Of a stretch of 64,000 nt of DNA, positions 2,417 through 34,872 are shown piece after piece. The DNA is from TPA_inf: Saccharomyces (Eukaryota): positions 256,001-320,000 of the forward strand of contig BK006946.2 of the NCBI GenBank assembly GCA_000146045.2, given 5' to 3'. Each line of letters starts with the position of its first letter. The stretch's first letter is position 1. A model generated the notes under the pieces. That model was not told the DNA's origin, did not search any database, and was given only the letters and a program-made list of their open reading frames with translations. The position numbers were made by a program, and so were the translations under genes.

Positions 2417-3157
2417 TATATTTAAGTAACAGAGTGCTTTTTGATGGTTTTTGTTAACCGTCTTTCGAGCAGTTGAAGGATGAGAGTGAGTGTTAATGAG
2501 GGGTTATTTCTGCAAAACTTCTGCCGATATATTCTGCACTTAGTTCCCGCTGTTGTTCAGCCTTCACGTTCCTTAGCTACACAAGTCAGTTAAATCTGGT
2601 CCTGCCAAAGTGAATAAGTTGAAGATATTTATCTAGCTTGCGATGGAAAAAACTACAATAGGAAAAAAACTAATTAAAAAAAGAAAAAAAAAGAGAAGAA
2701 TTCAATGTTTAGGGATATAAATTCGATATAAAGGTTTAAAGTAAATAAATTTCGTGTATTACTATGCAAGTAATGTTTCTGCCTGCACCGGCTTCGTAGC
2801 TGGTGGAGTGCGATAGCGATGATACTACCTGAAAACACAGAGGAAGGCCGTCAGCCCCGCGCTAGGAACGATGAGGAGAAACCAGTTGGCGAATCGCCAC
2901 ATGCCATTTACGTAAAAGATGCTGTGTAACCTAACAGAAATAATCGATGGTGTGAACTAAAGTCCTAGGATGCACATAAGCAAGCGAAAAAGTGAAAACA
3001 ACATTTCCAGAGCTAAAAAAATGCATTTGCCGATCCGAAATAATCTCAAAACGAAAAAATGATTATGGACGTAAACAAAATTACCGCATTTCGCTCTCCT
3101 ATTATCATAACAAGCATGAGCGCAAAACTTAAAAATCCATCAAGAGGCAAAAAATAA

Positions 3158-3239
3158 CGACAACTGCAGGACTCGAACCTGCGCGGGCAAAGCCCAAAAG
3201 ATTTCTAATCTTTCGCCTTAACCACTCGGCCAAGTTGCC
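3158..3239 (-). tRNA. tS(AGA)M: tRNA-Ser (anticodon AGA), 82 nt with long variable arm
   Basis: The reverse complement reads GGCAACTTGGCCGAGTGGTTAAGGCGAAAGATTAGAAATCTTTTGGGCTTTGCCCGCGCAGGTTCGAGTCCTGCAGTTGTCG. It has a 7-bp acceptor stem (one G-U pair), GTTCGAGTC T-arm, anticodon loop TTAGAAA and a long extra arm typical of type II Ser tRNA. Confidence 0.95.
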
Positions 3240-4220
3240 ATACTAACTTGATTATTTGTGTATTCTGTTTTCTTGTGATTCCTTCTGGTTACATAATTAC
3301 ATTGTCTATATTCATATTTGATTCTAACAGCAGGTAATATTGGTCTATCGGCTACTCGTTCAAAAAATTAAAATCGTTATCAATTATATTCCATAGTATA
3401 GGTTGTTAAAAGATGGAATTAATTAAAGTAGAGTAGTAGAACAGGGATCACAGTGTTATTAGATTTTGGAGCAACTGATGTGTGTGAGTAATATATAAGG
3501 ATGAATCGAATGAAAGTATTATGAGAAAAGGAATCATCGTTGTGTAAAGTTGTTCATTTCGTATTTCTGGGTACTGTGAATGAGATGAACTTGCTGATAA
3601 TCGTTGGCATACTATTATTTGGAACGGTAATATTTTTGCGAATACAAAGTATACTGTAGTTTTTCCCCGAGGATTTACGAACCCACGAGAAGTGATCAAT
3701 ATTTCTACACAGTAGCATTATGATCTCTCTTTATTCGCTTATGTGTCGCCATTCACTACCCTATCATAATTCGGATCCTTGTGTTTCAGCTCCCATTAAG
3801 TTTGACGACCGTTCGTCATTTATTTATATTCTTACACCGTACACGATAATATACTTATGCGAACTCTAGTCGGTCGATGGTGATTAATTTTCATTTCAAT
3901 ATTTACTTATATCGGCGATAAGTCTTAAGCATGGAATTTATAGTCATTCTGTCACCCCTCCGAAACAGAAATGAATTTGTAAATGTATTCACTAAGTTTA
4001 GCCGTTTTAGACATTTGAATGTCGTTCGTCATCAGCGCGGCCAATATTGTTTACATGAAGAAAATGTTGTTAATATAGGCACTCTATTTGGTTTCATTAT
4101 GAGAAGTATCTTGCTGCTTGATGTCTTCGCACTTTTTTTTTCCAGATTTTTCAGGTGATGAGGTGGAGCTGGAGGATTTTACAATATTACTCAAATAATT
4201 TGTAGACAACGTTAGCGTGA

Positions 4221-5704: not shown

Positions 5705-6685
5705 TTAGGCAATCAAACCATGAGGAACGACTTCAATGGAATAACCATCAGGATCCTTCAAAAAGGCAATATTCTTCATTCTGCCTTGGTTAAATTTAGG
5801 AGACCATTGGATCTTATCGCCGTATTTCACTTCAATTTCTTTACAAAGGGCGCCAGCGTCATCACAACTTATGCAGATGTGACCATAACCCTGGGGCTCT
5901 GAGTTACCGTTATGATAGTGGAAGTTTGGATCATTCTCAGTTCCCCAATTATGAGTTAACTCCAACACACTTTCACATGAAAAAACGCTGTCGGTCTTTG
6001 GAACGCCATAACCAAGAAAGTATAACGTAAATTTTGCACTTTCGTGCTCACTAGTTCTTAATAATTTCATGCCCAACACATTCTGGTAGAATTCTAAAGA
6101 CCGGGTTGGGTTTTTAATACGAATCATGGTATGATTGAACTTGTTACCTACTGAGCCCTTTGGGTATTCCTGACCCTCTCTAGAATATGTGATCAACTCA
6201 ATCCAGTATCCATCAGGGCCTAAAGCAAACGCAATGTCCTTCTGTCTTCCTTCAGAGAGTCTCTTCTTGAATTTGACACCCTGAGATTCTAGCTCTTCGC
6301 AGGTTTTATTGATATCGGATACAGAAAAACAGATGTGCCCAAATCCACGATGAGGTTCCTCATTCCCGTTGTTGATCTTGTAGTCTGGGTTTTTTTCAGT
6401 ACCCCAATTGTGAGTTAGTTCTAAGACACCGTGTGCGCTAAAAACATCAGGCTCTCCATTCTTATTTTTGGGTATGTCGTCTTTTGGAAAGCTTAAAAAG
6501 TACAAGCTAAATTTTGCTTCTTCAAAATCCTTTCTGCTTAATAGCTTCATACCGAAGTGTTCGGTGTAGAACTTAACGGTCCTTGCTGGATCCTTGACTC
6601 TTAAACATGTGTGATTAAGCAGAAGGGTTGGATCATTCGAGGCTTTCTCAATCTGAATTGGATAGCGTGTACTATCAGTGGACAT
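5705..6685 (-). CDS. GLO1: GLO1; glyoxalase I (lactoylglutathione lyase), 326 aa
   Basis: The ORF encodes two tandem VOC/glyoxalase repeats with near-identical motifs (VLELTHNWGTE...GFGHICFS and VLELTHNWGTEND...GYGHICIS). I start it at the MSTDSTRYPIQ methionine, 14 codons inside the track ORF, which gives 326 aa. Confidence 0.88.
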   Translation of the reverse strand: MSTDSTRYPIQIEKASNDPTLLLNHTCLRVKDPARTVKFYTEHFGMKLLSRKDFEEAKFSLYFLSFPKDDIPKNKNGEPDVFSAHGVLELTHNWGTEKNPDYKINNGNEEPHRGFGHICFSVSDINKTCEELESQGVKFKKRLSEGRQKDIAFALGPDGYWIELITYSREGQEYPKGSVGNKFNHTMIRIKNPTRSLEFYQNVLGMKLLRTSEHESAKFTLYFLGYGVPKTDSVFSCESVLELTHNWGTENDPNFHYHNGNSEPQGYGHICISCDDAGALCKEIEVKYGDKIQWSPKFNQGRMKNIAFLKDPDGYSIEVVPHGLIA

Positions 6686-7476
6686 TGTTAGTTTGTAGCT
6701 GGTGGCGTATCTGGTCTGAAGTGTCAAAAAAAAGGCATGGAAATGTTATTCCGATTTTTTTTCTCCCTATTTATAAACGTCACTAACTAGAAATACGGGA
6801 TATCAACTACTACGAGAGAGGGACATTCTAGTATCAAAGAAACTTACTATGACGCAGTTTAGGATCCCTGTGGTGACTACGTATCCAGGTCTACTACTCC
6901 ATCGTAAAGCCCCTTGTTTATTCAGTGTCCAGATCATATGCGGGATGTGTATTTTGTGCTGAGTGGAAAAATAAGATCATATGCTCAAGAATAAAGGGTT
7001 AAAGGGTATGGAAATTTCAGTTCTCCCTGGCTCAAGAACATTGTCAGTATTCCTATAACTGAAGCTGAGTGGTACTAATGCACCGAGATGCAAAGTCCGA
7101 ACCACCCCCACCCCCCTCTTTACCTATTTTTTATATTTTGTGATAAAGGGATAACTCGTCTTGCCTTCACTGCGCTTCGATTCTACTTTAGCTAAACTAA
7201 GCGTTACTTTGTTTGAGAATCTCTCAGCCGTTAAATCAACGTACTTGTATACTAAACAGTATATTCACGTGATAACTTTGCCTTACACCTATGATATAGA
7301 TAAATATATACATATATATGAGTGTGTGTGCATTGCGTCACTAAACTATGTTTAATATGACAGAAGGTTTTCGTTTAATTTTGCCGCTACCCGAAAATTT
7401 TGGCAGTTGCAATTTATAACTAAAGGAACCACCTTATTGTAAATTCCTCAACGGAAAAGCTATGGCTTAGCTAGGG

Positions 7477-10400
7477 TTGACAATGTCAGTTTACCATTTA
7501 CCAACGCTGTTGAACCCGCTGGTTAATGCTATATTTAACTGTCCCGAACCAGAAAGATCCCCATTGAAAAAGCTTTTCGCTAATTTAAAAACCCGTAGGT
7601 TTATCCTCCTAGCACCTCCTTCAGAATACCTTTTGAATTACCACGATGTCAAGAGCAAACTGCCGTTACATGACCTCTGTTATAATGCAGAGTTTATTAA
7701 CTCTTACATATTGTTAATGACTGAAAACTCTTACATAAATACGAATTCAAGGGACAGTCATTATGAAACGTTAGATGGTAAGACCGTTGTTATTCAATGG
7801 AAGAATAATGTGATCCATGCCTTAAATGGATTTCATATAAGGCGAAGACTAAAGATTCTAGAGACAAAAATATTACCCAATTTTAATGACTACTTTGAAG
7901 GGGCGGCTGATTTTATCATACTATTCATAGATCAACCTTTAAATTGCGAATTTGTACCTAACGACTACTTACAGTGTTTTCACAATTATGAGAAAATACC
8001 AAAAAATGCACATGCTATGCCAAATCTGTCGATAGATTCTTTTCAGCAAGAAAGATCGTCATTCGAGAATATATTGCACATTCATCCTGCTCGATTAACA
8101 CAGCTTGGCCAATTGTTTTCGAGTTACAGAACGCTCGCTCCTGGTGATGATCCATCTAGAAGTATTTTTGAAAGCATCGTGCAACAAGCATTTGATGGAA
8201 TGAAATCGGATTCACTTTTCAAGAACTTTTCTAATCTTTACGATCTTATACACGACTATTTTGAACTAAATCTTTACGATGATATATGGTCTAGGCTTAC
8301 TACACATTTCAAAGGCCACGAAGTAGACACTGAAAAAATAAATATTTTTCAGTGAACCAGTTGTTGACAGATTTTTACTCAAAAGATTATGGGGAATTTA
8401 AATTACACGACATCACTCTTATTGAAAGGCGTCTCCATCTAGCGTCCAAACATCTTCAAAAGTTGGCTTTGACCCATTCATACGCTGAAAAATCTAAAAT
8501 ATTAGTTGAAACTCTACAGAAATTATCAGGTACTACCGAAATGGATTCACATCAACTAGAACTACCAGACGGATTGAATAACATGACGATGGATGCAGAC
8601 ACTTTAATTAGCCTTTTTGTGCTCGTTGTTTGCAGAAGTGAACAAAAGCACCTTAAAAGTCATCTTTACTATTTGCAAAATTTTTCGAATAACTCTTCTT
8701 CTACAAAATTCGGCATTCTAGGGTATGCTGTATCCACACTGGAAGCAGTGGTTTGTTATTTCGAAGACTTCAACAAAAATACAGGCAACGTGGCGAAAGC
8801 TAACACATTATGTGAAAAAACTAAGAATTTATTAGATAAGTTGTCATGTGAAAACCCCACAAATGAAGTAGAAGATCTGGCAACATACAAGGATATTTTG
8901 ACCTACAGAAATGAGCAAGGACAATCCATTCTATCCATATGTATAACAAATCATAAAAACTACATCTTATTAGATATTCTTTCTGAATATGAAAACGACT
9001 TTCCAGTAGAAGACCTTTTAGAGGACGAAACGATTGATGGTTCTACGCTGCTTATAGAATCGATAAAAGCAGGAAATTTAGAAGCCGCGAAAGTTCTCAT
9101 AAAGATCATGCTGTTCAATTGTACTGAAGAGGAGCTGGTTTCTTATATCAATAAAACAGATAAATATGCACGTACCGTGGCTCATTATCTAACCCATGAA
9201 ATGGATATACTTAAAAGCATCGGAAATTATATTGATTGGAAACGAAAAAATTCCAGTGGACAAACGCCTTTATTTTCCATCTTTAGAAGTTATGATCAAC
9301 CAAATTATGAAGAAATGGTGAAGACCGCATTTGATATCGCAAATACTTGGTATAGAAAGCACAACAGTTTGTTTGACTATCTAGACCACACCGATAATAA
9401 GGGCAATAGCTTGTTGCATGTTTTGAAAACAAACATTCCAATCCTTTTACAACTGACTAAGCTAGATATTAATGAGGAAAATTATAAGGGATTGACGCCA
9501 TTAATGGTATATGTGAAGTACAAAAGACTAAGTAATATTGACGCCATCACGAAAGACCGTCGACTTATATTAGAGAAGGTTCAAAACTCGACCTTCTTCA
9601 CTTGTTTTGATTATGCAAAAGATCACTCGGTACTAAGCAAGATAGGAGAAAGGGGTGTCAAAGATTCACTTTTTGGATTAATATATTTTCATTCTTTGCG
9701 ATATCATAATTTAAATGCGACAACAAATATAACATCCGTTTCAAATGCAGAGAAACCTTTCGCCACTACTGTTATTAACATGAAAACAATTCAAGGCTTA
9801 CTACGCTCAATTCTGAAAGACAATCCGTTCACCTTTTTGCCATTAAATACCTATATCGATGAAATATCGCACTTAAACCGTTCTGATTTAACAATAATCG
9901 GGAAAACAGATGTCACATCGTTACTTCACCAATTAACTAACTGCTTCAACGTTCTTTTATTCCTGAAAAAAATTCCAGAAAATTTGTTCACTGATGAGGC
10001 TTCTATCTTATATTGGATGCGCATAAACACTTCTAAAAGAAACCAGAAACCCTCAGGAAAAGAAAATCCAAAAACAATGGAACCCGAGGAGATTAATATG
10101 ATACAAAGCTTTTTACGTTTTAATTTTGATGAGATTTCATCATTTAAGGCAAGCTTGAATATTTTGAGGAAAGTCTTAATATTTATTAATTTGAAATCCG
10201 ATGATTTCGAGGATGCTTATAAGGGTCTTAACGAAATGGGTAGAAAATTAATTAATAGTGAAGCATCCAGCGCATTTAAGGGGATTATAACAAATCATAA
10301 TATGTTCAGTGAATTATCGCTAGCAGCACTACTAGAAAACGTGCGTTTCTTGGAACAATGTACTATCCAACTATCTAGTTTCGTTCAGATAATTTTATTT

Positions 10401-10754
10401 GAAAAAATTCCGAACTGGTGGAAACATTATGGTGAGTTTTTAGCTTTACATAAAAGCTATCGGAAGGCTTTTCCTAACATGGTTAAGCCAAAAAGTGCAT
10501 CAGATACCTCTAGTCGTGCTCCACTTGGTGGTTTTATTGAAACGAAGCGTGAACAATCGGAGCAAAGACTAGCGGTTCAGATAAAGGCCTCTTCAAAAAT
10601 GCTCAAAGAACTTGGAAGCGAAATTTTTGTAGCTCACGAAAGGTTGGCCGAGGAACTAAGCAATTATATGGAGTTCAGGAAGGCGTGCTTAGATCAGCGT
10701 AGTCTTGTGGCATTTGCCACAACCAACATTAGCGTTCTTCAAGAATGTGTTTAA
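7477..10754 (+). pseudogene. VRL1: VRL1 (YML003W + YML002W); VARP-like Vps9-domain GEF disrupted by a frameshift near 8334-8353
   Basis: Two same-strand ORFs abut: frame 1 at 7477..8355 and frame 0 open from 8334 to 10754, with the first ATG at 8541. They overlap by about 20 nt within a run of A6/T5 homopolymers. The downstream ORF encodes ankyrin-like repeats and a Vps9-like region. I recall that in S288C these are annotated as YML003W and YML002W and that together they form the frameshifted VRL1 gene. Confidence 0.7.
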
Positions 10755-11173
10755 GATTGACTGAGCATTGCAATATTTTACCTTCTTCTCACTTGTTCTA
10801 TAGAATTTTTTACCCAAAAATAAGAGATAAAGAGTTTGAAAGAAACATCATTACATATATATATATATACGGGCAGCTCCGTAACTCGAAAAGAGTGACA
10901 GCTGTTTTACTCTGTAATAGCTGACGATTCTTCAGTGATTGGAATAACCTCAGAACTCACCGGTACGGGTAACGTTTGTATCTCGCGGATTAACTTTTCG
11001 CATTTCGACCTACTGAGAGAAGAAGTTCCTTTTGTTAATCTGTACCTTTATCTTGAAAGCAGTCGTTACAGAGGAACAGCATTGGGAATCACCAACAAAA
11101 TAAGAGGAATAAGCTCATCCAGTCCACTTCTTATCCATATAGAAACCCCTTCTGTATCAATTCAAATTAAGTG

Positions 11174-11800
11174 ATGTCTTCTAGAAAAAAAAATATTTTG
11201 AAAGTAATCATCCTAGGTGACTCTGGTGTTGGGAAGACCTCCTTGATGCACCGTTATGTCAATGATAAGTATTCTCAACAGTATAAAGCAACAATTGGGG
11301 CTGACTTTTTAACAAAAGAGGTGACAGTTGACGGTGATAAAGTTGCCACCATGCAAGTTTGGGATACTGCTGGACAGGAACGTTTCCAATCACTGGGTGT
11401 TGCTTTCTATAGAGGTGCAGATTGTTGCGTTTTGGTCTACGATGTGACCAATGCCAGTTCCTTTGAGAATATTAAGTCTTGGCGAGATGAATTTCTAGTG
11501 CATGCGAACGTAAACTCACCAGAAACATTTCCATTTGTTATACTGGGAAATAAAATTGATGCCGAAGAATCTAAAAAAATTGTATCAGAAAAGTCCGCTC
11601 AGGAGCTTGCTAAATCATTAGGCGATATTCCTTTGTTTTTAACAAGTGCCAAAAACGCCATAAACGTTGATACCGCATTTGAAGAAATTGCAAGGAGTGC
11701 TTTACAACAGAATCAAGCTGATACAGAAGCCTTTGAAGATGACTATAATGATGCCATCAATATTCGCCTAGATGGAGAAAATAATTCTTGTAGCTGTTGA
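11174..11800 (+). CDS. YPT7: YPT7; Rab7-family GTPase, 208 aa
   Basis: It has the P-loop GDSGVGKTS, switch II WDTAGQE, NKID and SAK motifs, and a C-terminal CSC prenylation motif. The track ORF begins one codon earlier at a GTG; the true ATG is at 11174. Confidence 0.93.
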
Positions 11801-12030: not shown

Positions 12031-12150
12031 ATCACATGACTACCTAACAAAATATTTATTTTTCTTTTTTAATATTTGAAAATACTAAAATATTTTTGTT
12101 GTTTTTTGAAAAAAGGATTTTTAATGTGTATGCGTTCCGAACTTTAAATA
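12031..12150. other. CEN13: CEN13 point centromere (CDEI-CDEII-CDEIII)
   Basis: CDEI is ATCACATG at 12031-12038. CDEII is an 86-bp tract of about 86% A+T at 12039-12124. CDEIII is TGTGTATGCGTTCCGAACTTTAAATA at 12125-12150, with the invariant CCG at 12137-12139 and the TTCCGAA core. The position between the YPT7 and CDC5 3' ends matches CEN13. Confidence 0.92.
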
Positions 12151-13018: not shown

Positions 13019-15136
13019 TTAATCTACGGTAACAATTGTGGACTTCTGCTTCAAACCTTCCTTTATCAAAGTTAGTTTCTCTCTAAAGTTACTTTCTGGA
13101 TATCCTGGGATCTCGCCATATTTTAGTACTTCAACTAAGGGATATGTGGTGCTTTCATGGGAGGGAGAAATGTAGGTCACCAATTTACCTCCGTCGGATA
13201 TTGCCATTTTATGATGATCTTTGAAATTGAACTGGAAAGTACCATCACTTAGTTCAAACATAACAAATGGTTTATACCTTGTGTATCTTCTCAAAAATAC
13301 ATCATCTTTATGATATTCTTCTCTGCCAAACGTAGATACTCGGCTCAAATTTGCCTTCATGTACTTGGCAAAAAAATCAACTACTTCTAAATGTCTACTT
13401 AGCTCTCGTGGTTTTTCGCTCAATAAATAATGACTTGCTACCCAACCTTCCCGATCGTCATAACTAATATACCAAAACTCTTCTGCATCTGCCAATCGGA
13501 GAACTGTGGTGCCATTATTAAATAAGACACCAATATCCTCTGTTGATAACTGATAGGAGAATCCGTGTTTGTTGGAGTAGTCGACCCACTTGGTAACTAT
13601 CATTGGGTGTTTAATTTTAGGCAATCTTGATTTCGGAAGACCTCCCATTTTATACTGAGCTTCTGCTTCTACAATGCCATTCAAAGTAAGATGACACTCA
13701 CTGGCTAATATTCTCAAGGAGATTTCTGATTTAATGACATTGGTCGATGTAGCTATTAATTCTTTTCTCAAAACGGCCTGTTGTGCTCTACGTATCCTTG
13801 CTTCACGAGCCAAATCGTTTAATCTTCTTTGTGCCTCTATATCAACAACCTCCTTATATTTCTGTTTCGTCCCGCCAGGGGATAAAGAATGTGGTAAAAA
13901 TGGTCTGTTTTGGTGGTACTCTTCTAGTTTATCGATACTAGATTTAATTGAAGAAATATAATCCCTCTTTTGACGCTGAATTTTATCGCTGCTCATGCTT
14001 TCTAATAGTAGAGATTTTTCCATGCAATCTTTGAAGTTAACCAGTGACTGCTCTTCAGGAATATCCTCAAAATTTGGTGCTTCTGACATGACCGTCGAAG
14101 GAATAGATGGTGGGAAAGTTCCCCTAAACCATACATAATCCATAATTTCAGTCAAAGAGGGCCTTTCTATTGGATCTAAGGATAGAATGTCTCTTATTAA
14201 AATCTTACCTTCATCTGAGATTGGTTTATCTCTTGGAAACGAAAAATCACGACATTTGATTCTTTCATAAATAGTGTTTACATCTCTTGCTTGGAAGGGT
14301 GGCTTACCAATCAACAAAGCATAAAGCATAACACCTAATGACCAAATATCTACTTCAAATGAATGTCCAGAATGCTTACCCATCAACACTTCAGGTGCGA
14401 TGTAATTAGGTGTTCCGCATATGGTGTATTTACGTTCACTTTCATTCGCCAACACAGCTGCCAGACCGAAGTCACCAATCTTTAAGTTATAGTTTGAATC
14501 GAAGAAGATGTTACCAAGTTTTAAATCTCTATGTATAACTCTTCTTGAATGCATATACTTAATTGCACCACATATTTGAGTGGTGAAAAATCTAACTTCT
14601 GGTTCTGTTAAAACTTTTCTTCTTTTTAGTAATTCCATTAATGAACCGTTGGGGCATATCTCCAATAAGATATAGACATTGCTATCATCCTCAAAACAAT
14701 CAATAAACTGAACGATATTTGGATGGGACATACTTTTATGAATTTGAATCTCCGACAACAACTTTTTTCTTGTCTTCTCTGATTTAATTGAGGCTTTAGC
14801 AACTGTTTTGGCAGCAAAAATTTCGCCTGAATCGTCCTTAATTTGGAAACAGCGAGCAAATCCACCTTCACCTAAAAAATGACCTCGGTGATAGTCTTTT
14901 CCTCTTGTTTTGATTAATGAAGGTGGTGTTTTACACAAAGCTGATAACTTTTCCCTTTTCTTTTTTTGAGCTGGCTGGTGGTGATGATCATTATTCGGAT
15001 CTAGTCTCTTTGTTTGTTTAAAGTGATTTTCTTTTCCTACGAGGTCTGCGGTATTTCCCTTTATTGGGGTGTGAACTAACTTGGAACGGGTATTCAATTG
15101 CTTATCATTGATAGCTTTAAGAGGACCCAACGACAT
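13019..15136 (-). CDS. CDC5: CDC5; polo-like Ser/Thr kinase, 705 aa
   Basis: Kinase motifs HRDLKLGN, DFGLA and GTPNYIAPE are present, along with C-terminal polo-box regions. It is a full-length ORF. Confidence 0.93.
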   Translation of the reverse strand: MSLGPLKAINDKQLNTRSKLVHTPIKGNTADLVGKENHFKQTKRLDPNNDHHHQPAQKKKREKLSALCKTPPSLIKTRGKDYHRGHFLGEGGFARCFQIKDDSGEIFAAKTVAKASIKSEKTRKKLLSEIQIHKSMSHPNIVQFIDCFEDDSNVYILLEICPNGSLMELLKRRKVLTEPEVRFFTTQICGAIKYMHSRRVIHRDLKLGNIFFDSNYNLKIGDFGLAAVLANESERKYTICGTPNYIAPEVLMGKHSGHSFEVDIWSLGVMLYALLIGKPPFQARDVNTIYERIKCRDFSFPRDKPISDEGKILIRDILSLDPIERPSLTEIMDYVWFRGTFPPSIPSTVMSEAPNFEDIPEEQSLVNFKDCMEKSLLLESMSSDKIQRQKRDYISSIKSSIDKLEEYHQNRPFLPHSLSPGGTKQKYKEVVDIEAQRRLNDLAREARIRRAQQAVLRKELIATSTNVIKSEISLRILASECHLTLNGIVEAEAQYKMGGLPKSRLPKIKHPMIVTKWVDYSNKHGFSYQLSTEDIGVLFNNGTTVLRLADAEEFWYISYDDREGWVASHYLLSEKPRELSRHLEVVDFFAKYMKANLSRVSTFGREEYHKDDVFLRRYTRYKPFVMFELSDGTFQFNFKDHHKMAISDGGKLVTYISPSHESTTYPLVEVLKYGEIPGYPESNFREKLTLIKEGLKQKSTIVTVD

Positions 15137-34800: not shown

Positions 34801-34872
34801 TCCGATATAGTGTAACGGCTATCACATCACGCTTTCACCGTGGAGACCGGGGTTCGACTCCCCGTAGCGGAG
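34801..34872 (+). tRNA. tE(UUC)M: tRNA-Glu (anticodon UUC), 72 nt; carries an A5-G68 acceptor-stem mismatch
   Basis: Sequence TCCGATATAGTGTAACGGCTATCACATCACGCTTTCACCGTGGAGACCGGGGTTCGACTCCCCGTAGCGGAG, with anticodon loop CTTTCAC and T-arm GGTTCGACTCC. It lies 262 bp upstream of CLU1. Confidence 0.92.

Follow-up and report, generated by a model that had tools for sequence, protein, structure and literature searches.

The 64,000-nucleotide stretch of Saccharomyces DNA analysed here (contig BK006946.2 of GenBank assembly GCA_000146045.2, positions 256,001 to 320,000 of the forward strand; the whole stretch is called the window below) almost certainly carries the null vrl1 allele of the S288C lineage, in which the loss of a single T has split one gene for a Rab guanine nucleotide exchange factor (GEF) of the VARP family into two overlapping open reading frames (ORFs), YML003W and YML002W. 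The locus is the published inactivating frameshift of that lineage, and it is therefore already known and holds no new biology. Bean et al. 2015 (Mol Biol Cell 26:1119; PMC4357511) described the T deletion at chrXIII:264337 in common laboratory strains, resequenced BY4741, detected a truncated product at the predicted size, named the gene VRL1 (VARP-like 1) and obtained, by insertion of T856, a functional VRL1 that rescues muk1 vps9. We found no difference between the window and the vrl1 allele of S288C/BY4741: the products, the position of the lesion, the neighbouring genes and the length of the corrected protein (1090 aa) are the same. In an exact-sequence look-up the 290-aa product matched S288C YML003W (NP_013711.1) and the 737-aa product matched S288C YML002W (NP_013712.1) at all residues. 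The proposal of the initial annotation, made from the sequence alone, that a frameshift divides VRL1 into these two ORFs is thus borne out by the products, by a published correcting primer, by synteny, by the VPS9 domain and ankyrin repeats of the fused protein and by continuous orthologues.

The two frames lie on the forward strand. The upstream one (codon starts 1 mod 3) is open between a stop at 7468 and the TGA that ends YML003W; its first ATG, at 7483, opens an ORF of 290 aa, and the start at 7477 given in the initial annotation is a TTG that came from a mechanical ORF list. The downstream one (0 mod 3) is open from a TGA at 8331-8333 to the stop at 10752-10754, i.e. over 8334-10754 or 807 codons, and its first ATG yields 737 aa. 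They overlap by 22 nt, and the overlap contains a run of six A (A6, 8333-8338) and a run of five T (T5, 8345-8349); the stop-codon map and the ORF list agree with the initial annotation in each of these frame and run positions. The third forward frame, which is non-coding throughout, has 119 stops in ~1364 codons (7076-11168), a mean of one every ~11.5 codons, and from this stop density we estimate the chance of an 807-codon open frame to be of the order of 1e-30. A systematic in-silico test showed that one nucleotide added anywhere in 8331-8354 gives a single ORF of exactly 1090 aa, the length that had been expected approximately, and that loss of two nucleotides gives 1089 aa. Loss of one nucleotide anywhere in that interval never fuses the frames (removal of one A, for instance, leaves 285 aa), so that of the earlier suggestion that adding or removing one A would restore the ORF only the addition holds. 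An A added in place of the missing T gives a Y286N variant, and a T added within the T5 run gives EKINIF in place of EKYKYF.

The lesion itself was defined by comparison with intact alleles. An alignment of the window with the DNA of the intact allele L001 (protein P0001) showed one indel in the coding sequence (CDS), a T missing after 8337, and six single-nucleotide polymorphisms (SNPs); the missing T is the only frame-disrupting change in the window CDS relative to intact alleles. Wild-type DNA reads AAAAA-T-ATAAATAT at this point and, in a longer context, GACACTGAAAAA-T-ATAAATATTTTTCAG where the window has GACACTGAAAAAATAAATATTTTTCAG. The lost T affects codon 286 and corresponds to T856 of the intact CDS, which is chrXIII:264337 in Bean et al., and the correcting primer of Bean et al. 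2015 fits the window only once a T is inserted after 8337. By the published coordinate of the lost T, the window most likely spans chrXIII 256001-320000 of the S288C reference. The A6 run thus arose through the deletion (the wild type has A5-T-A) and is no site of slippage, and the T5 run plays no part; the initial annotation, which had pointed to both runs as indel sites, was mistaken on this point. With the T put back, the window CDS is identical at 3273/3273 nt to the CDS of two YJM-series S. cerevisiae assemblies, GCA_000976305.2 and GCA_000976335.2 (loci L008 and L011). The window allele is a natural intact haplotype minus one base, without secondary decay, which indicates that the deletion is a very recent event.

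Continuity of the ORF is conserved. When the fused protein was searched against a collection of 5.8 billion proteins, the top match (P0001, S. cerevisiae, 1090 aa) represented a 90%-identity cluster of 206 sequences, and 10 of the 15 members listed have 1090 aa. Among the 55 homologues, 48 have between 1055 and 1298 aa and nearly all of these 48 cover 97-100% of the fused query, which amounts to continuous orthologues of ~1055-1300 aa in about 45 other yeasts. They belong to Saccharomyces, Torulaspora, Zygosaccharomyces, Nakaseomyces, Lachancea, Eremothecium and Vanderwaltozyma, with more distant homologues in Candida and Yamadazyma. The proteins of S. kudriavzevii and S. eubayanus are both 1090 aa long, and their identity to the fused protein is the same before and after the break (82.8/82.7% and 80.7/80.5%, respectively). 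S. kudriavzevii has the restored junction EKYKYFSVNQLL unchanged, and Ser290 varies hardly at all among the aligned orthologues. The comparison with other strains and species that the initial annotation had called for revealed neither split orthologues nor unrelated homologues of the two halves.

Several public entries appear to show the split form in other genomes. The 737-aa 'YML002W' entries of YJM strains lie within uninterrupted 1090-aa ORFs, however, and a 734-aa 'YML002W' entry of S. arboricola H-6 (GCA_000292725.1, L007:1942-5205) lies within an uninterrupted 1087-aa ORF. At L002-L006, L008, L011 and L007 the annotation holds the truncated 'YML002W' only and no upstream gene; evidently the truncated model from S288C was copied to genomes in which VRL1 is intact, and these miscopied models (YJM series, S. 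arboricola H-6) may be of use to curators. We also looked for independent natural null alleles among cluster members of odd length (P0002, P0003, P0071 and P0077). At L022:3001-4839 (SRR089566, an old short-read run) an A6 run has become A5 at CDS nt 1759-1764, leaving a 612-aa product, and at L023:1501-4457 (GCA_949124795.1, a long-read 'collapsed' assembly) there are three +A insertions in A runs. These indels may be independent natural null alleles, but they are probably consensus errors, since all of them sit in A homopolymers. Precisely at the junction, 13 residues (VDTEKYKYFSVNQ) are left out of the gene models of P0002 and P0071, apparently by a modelled 'intron' that spans an indel.

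The distribution of the deletion was surveyed at the strain level. The T is kept at L001-L006, L008 and L011, each with the 1090-aa ORF (8/8), on haplotypes that either equal that of the window or differ from it. It is absent from the set recorded as L009-L021 and counted as 13 loci, all said to carry the window haplotype; these are spread over three chromosome-level assemblies and seven assemblies of independent sequencing runs. Over the CDS span 11 of the carriers have 0 mismatches to the window, L019 differs at 4 SNPs, and L020 could not be scored because of its short length. Across 6960 nt the assembly locus L009 shows 100% identity to the window. One of the carriers, GCA_000269885.1, we take to be CEN.PK113-7D. 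Compared with L001, the strain with an intact allele, the intergenic region between GLO1 and VRL1 shows a 2-nt indel with an adjacent substitution (window 7068-7069) and a few SNPs, which are ordinary promoter polymorphisms. Nothing that contradicts an S288C-lineage null allele was found, and two caveats apply. L019 (the Logan assembly of SRR9099583) is the sole deletion carrier with a haplotype unlike that of the window; its SNPs, at window positions 8400, 8816, 8995 and 10166, all lie downstream of the lesion and are all shared with the wild L002-type haplotype, so L019 is presumably a recombinant, for instance progeny of a laboratory x wild cross. Furthermore, the carrier strains surveyed are few and were not drawn at random; that the deletion is confined to the laboratory lineage holds for this sample and is otherwise based on the literature.

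The restored protein has the domain structure of a Rab5-family GEF. Pfam PF02204 (VPS9) matched residues 320-431 with 60.8 bits (cut-off 27; E 1.9e-16), and the ankyrin matches in the fused protein were near threshold. The 290-aa fragment by itself gave no Pfam match, and YML002W spans only positions 40-103 of the 104 of the VPS9 profile, because its ATG (Met354) falls within the domain. D371-A372-D373 is invariant, with D373 conserved across 14 orthologues; D373 is the equivalent of D313 of Rabex-5, and D373A causes loss of function (PMC4357511). The predicted model contains a helical bundle plus VPS9 fold, with helices at 183-275 ahead of those of VPS9 (from 308 on), followed by the ankyrin repeats and then by a PX fold and a three-helix BAR domain. 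The break precedes VPS9, and on this model codon 286 would fall in the linker that joins the helical bundle to VPS9. No Pfam PX match was obtained at E <= 0.1, and according to Shortill et al. (PMC9507130) key residues among the canonical PI3P-binding ones of the PX domain are missing, hence the name 'PX-like'; the same authors predicted the PX-BAR module at aa 737-1089. Nucleotide exchange on a Rab5-family GTPase is a putative activity taken from the literature, where the evidence includes the genetic rescue of muk1 vps9 (PMC4357511) and a targeting of Ypt10 that depends on D373 of Vrl1 (bioRxiv 10.64898/2026.07.13.738292).

The following course of events explains the observations best. An ancestral gene of 3273 nt encoded a 1090-aa endosomal protein composed of an N-terminal domain, a helical bundle with the VPS9 Rab-GEF core, ankyrin repeats and a PX-like/BAR module. 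Loss of the T between 8337 and 8338, in codon 286, shifts translation from the ATG at 7483 after Lys285, so that five wrong residues (INIFQ) are added before the TGA at 8353-8355. The product is thus a 290-aa fragment without VPS9, ankyrin and PX-BAR, and the other 804 codons remain open in the second frame, in which the genome annotation starts 'YML002W' at the first internal ATG. Our analysis shows the lesion and its uniqueness, the intact ancestral haplotype, the conserved continuity of the ORF and the domain folds, whereas loss of function and sensitivity to nonsense-mediated decay (NMD) are taken from published work: the mRNA is an NMD target, the truncated product alone is detected, and the complex of Vrl1 with Vin1 (VINE) is missing until the T is restored. 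The VRL1 transcript was used by Alalam et al. 2022 (PMC9074897) as an example of an NMD target containing a premature termination codon, stabilised in upf3-delta.

It is very unlikely, though the least so of the alternatives, that the broken allele is something other than a clean null, either because slippage yields traces of Vrl1 or because a 737-aa fragment initiated at Met354 still binds Vin1. The slippage variant may be a rare -1 event on the A6 run created by the mutation, giving a full-length, Y286N-like protein. Published data on localisation and from blots speak for a negligible function of either product. If a residual product were made, the endosome research of several decades in S288C would have rested on a hypomorphic or neomorphic background, not on a null.

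That the frameshift is bypassed, whether by -1 slipping of the ribosome (programmed or leaky) or by transcriptional slippage on the A6 run at 8333-8338, so that full-length Y286N-like Vrl1 is produced, seems extremely improbable. A slip of the P-site Lys-tRNA from AAA 8335-8337 to AAA 8334-8336 would take the ribosome into the downstream frame at the very point where that frame opens, with one additional A in the mRNA the sequence would be EKNKYFSVNQ, a single residue away from wild type, and a trace of full-length Vrl1 is compatible with the cited experiments. Nevertheless, the zero frame reads GAA AAA ATA, which holds no canonical X XXY YYZ heptamer, and the folding of the 100 nt that follow is no stronger than that of shuffled sequences (z = 0.10); programmed frameshifting was rejected for want of an in-frame slippery heptamer and of a downstream structure. 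Moreover, the A6 run is missing from wild alleles and from other species, in which the ORF is continuous, so that no selection for a recoding signal was possible, and the literature reports a truncated product alone, at the size predicted, an NMD-sensitive mRNA and a Vin1 that is mislocalised until the T is restored.

We consider it scarcely credible that gene fission has taken place and that YML003W and YML002W are separately expressed genes with functions of their own, such as that of a 737-aa protein with an ankyrin-repeat domain plus PX-BAR. S288C does annotate both as ORFs, YML002W keeps the whole ankyrin domain and the PX-BAR module, and the ankyrin-repeat domain is, according to Shortill 2022 (PMC9507130), the main Vin1-binding part. 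The split at the DNA level is seen in no orthologue, however, and it parts the helical bundle from VPS9, with Met354 inside VPS9. With 23 ATGs ahead of it between 7483 and 8540, the ATG at 8541 is also unlikely to serve as a start for ribosomes that scan the full transcript. Furthermore, a single base separates the allele from an intact natural haplotype and there has therefore been no time for subfunctionalisation, and Vin1 is cytosolic in uncorrected cells (PMC9507130).

A sequencing or assembly artefact, i.e. a homopolymer miscall in the source sequence, has a negligible chance of being correct: the lesion does lie within an A/T-rich low-complexity stretch, and the other apparent VRL1 frameshifts in public assemblies resemble consensus errors in A homopolymers, but the same deletion recurs at the 13 loci of the chromosome-level and sequencing-run assemblies, the base removed is a T and not a homopolymer unit (AAAAATATAAATAT is the T-bearing form), BY4741 was resequenced, its truncated protein detected and its function regained by T re-insertion (PMC4357511), and the frameshift has been corrected by CRISPR (PMC9507130).

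The vrl1 null allele lies in the expected chromosomal context, and the coordinates of the features are collected in Table 1. The gene order is GLO1 - VRL1 - YPT7 - CEN13. The CDEI-CDEII-CDEIII pattern of a point centromere matched once, with 0 matches expected in shuffles, and the match is presumably CEN13. Elsewhere in the window there are genes for tRNA-Ser(AGA) (3157-3240, minus strand) and tRNA-Glu(UUC) (34801-34872, plus strand).

Table 1. Features of the VRL1 locus and its surroundings (positions are those of the window)
Feature	Position	Strand	Remarks
Two-domain glyoxalase ORF, GLO1-like	5705-6727	-	Neighbour of VRL1
Divergent intergenic region	6728-7482		755 bp, common to VRL1 and the minus-strand GLO1-like gene
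VRL1 promoter region	7117..7482	+	366 bp 5' of YML003W, used as promoter in Bean et al. 2015 (PMC4357511)
YML003W ORF	7483..8355	+	VRL1 codons 1-285, then 5 out-of-frame codons (I-N-I-F-Q) and a premature TGA
Downstream frame	8334..10754	+	VRL1 codons 287-1090 plus stop; 804 codons
Lesion site	8337..8338	+	One T lost between these positions; wild type GAAAAATATAAATAT, window GAAAAAATAAATAT
Premature TGA	8353..8355	+	Encountered in the shifted frame
VPS9 domain (Rab5-family GEF)	8439..8774	+	Residues 320-431 of the restored protein
Annotated YML002W	8541..10754	+	Starts at the ATG that is Met354 of Vrl1
Catalytic Asp373 codon	8598-8600	+	Within VPS9
Ankyrin-repeat domain	8877..9665	+	Approximately residues 466-728
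PX-like plus BAR module, C-terminal	9690..10748	+	Residues 737-1089
Rab GTPase ORF, YPT7-like	11171-11800	+	Neighbour of VRL1
Point-centromere signature CDEI-CDEII-CDEIII	12032-12141	+	CDEI TCACATG, AT-rich CDEII of ~85 bp, CDEIII TG..TTCCGAA
Polo-kinase ORF	13019-15136	-	Centromere match lies between this ORF and the YPT7-like ORF

Known systems that resemble Vrl1 differ from it in several respects. The relation to human VARP (ANKRD27), a Rab21 GEF and retromer partner, is taken from the literature only (PMC4357511 and PMC6032885), although the VARP order of a VPS9 domain followed by ankyrin repeats is present in Vrl1. Herman et al. 2018 (PMC6032885) assigned the yeast protein to the Varp clade and noted that it lacks the fingernail motif; in line with this, a regular-expression search of the 1090-aa protein found no CHPLCxCxxC Zn-fingernail motif, not even C.C..C, whereas VARP has two that bind VPS29. 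Similarly, Vrl1 has only a single ankyrin block, after which the model runs into the PX-BAR fold: the second block of VARP (ANKRD2, which binds VAMP7) is missing, as was reported before (PMC4357511), and in its place stands an extra PX-BAR module that is absent from VARP (PMC9507130). Rab21, Rab32 and Rab38 are missing in yeast, and Vrl1 pairs with Vin1 and not with retromer VPS29. 'VARP-like' is therefore a fair description and 'functional equivalent of VARP' is not, as the authors of the follow-up work also say.

Searches against PDB sequences were of limited reach. The intact protein gave no matches with phmmer, and a 14-sequence profile matched generic ankyrin proteins only and no VPS9 protein, so that the sequences of Rabex-5, Vps9 and AtVps9a are distant from Vrl1. 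No VARP N-terminal structure was among the PDB matches. A profile of residues 1-470 (the N-terminus plus VPS9) retrieved Saccharomyces fragments only and nothing beyond the Saccharomycetaceae. Compared with the tandem of Rabex-5, Vps9 and AtVps9a, Vrl1 has different flanks, without a CUE or zinc-finger ubiquitin-binding domain.

The consequences for endosome biology follow from the role of the intact protein. Shortill et al. 2022 (eLife; PMC9507130) found that Vrl1 and the SNX-BAR protein Vin1 form the VINE complex and that CRISPR correction of the frameshift restores Vin1 puncta; since the window holds a broken Vrl1 only, no VINE is expected from it. Follow-up studies of 2024-2026 connected VINE to the inactivation of Vps21 and the activation of Ypt10 and still describe the laboratory lineage as VRL1-deficient. 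The lesion has been known to the field since 2015 and was actively exploited in papers and preprints of 2022-2026. The reference annotation carries on two artefactual 'genes'. A conserved Rab GEF of the VARP family is missing from standard laboratory yeast together with its VINE coat complex, and the endosomal Rab cascades in S288C, BY and apparently CEN.PK backgrounds thus miss one module.

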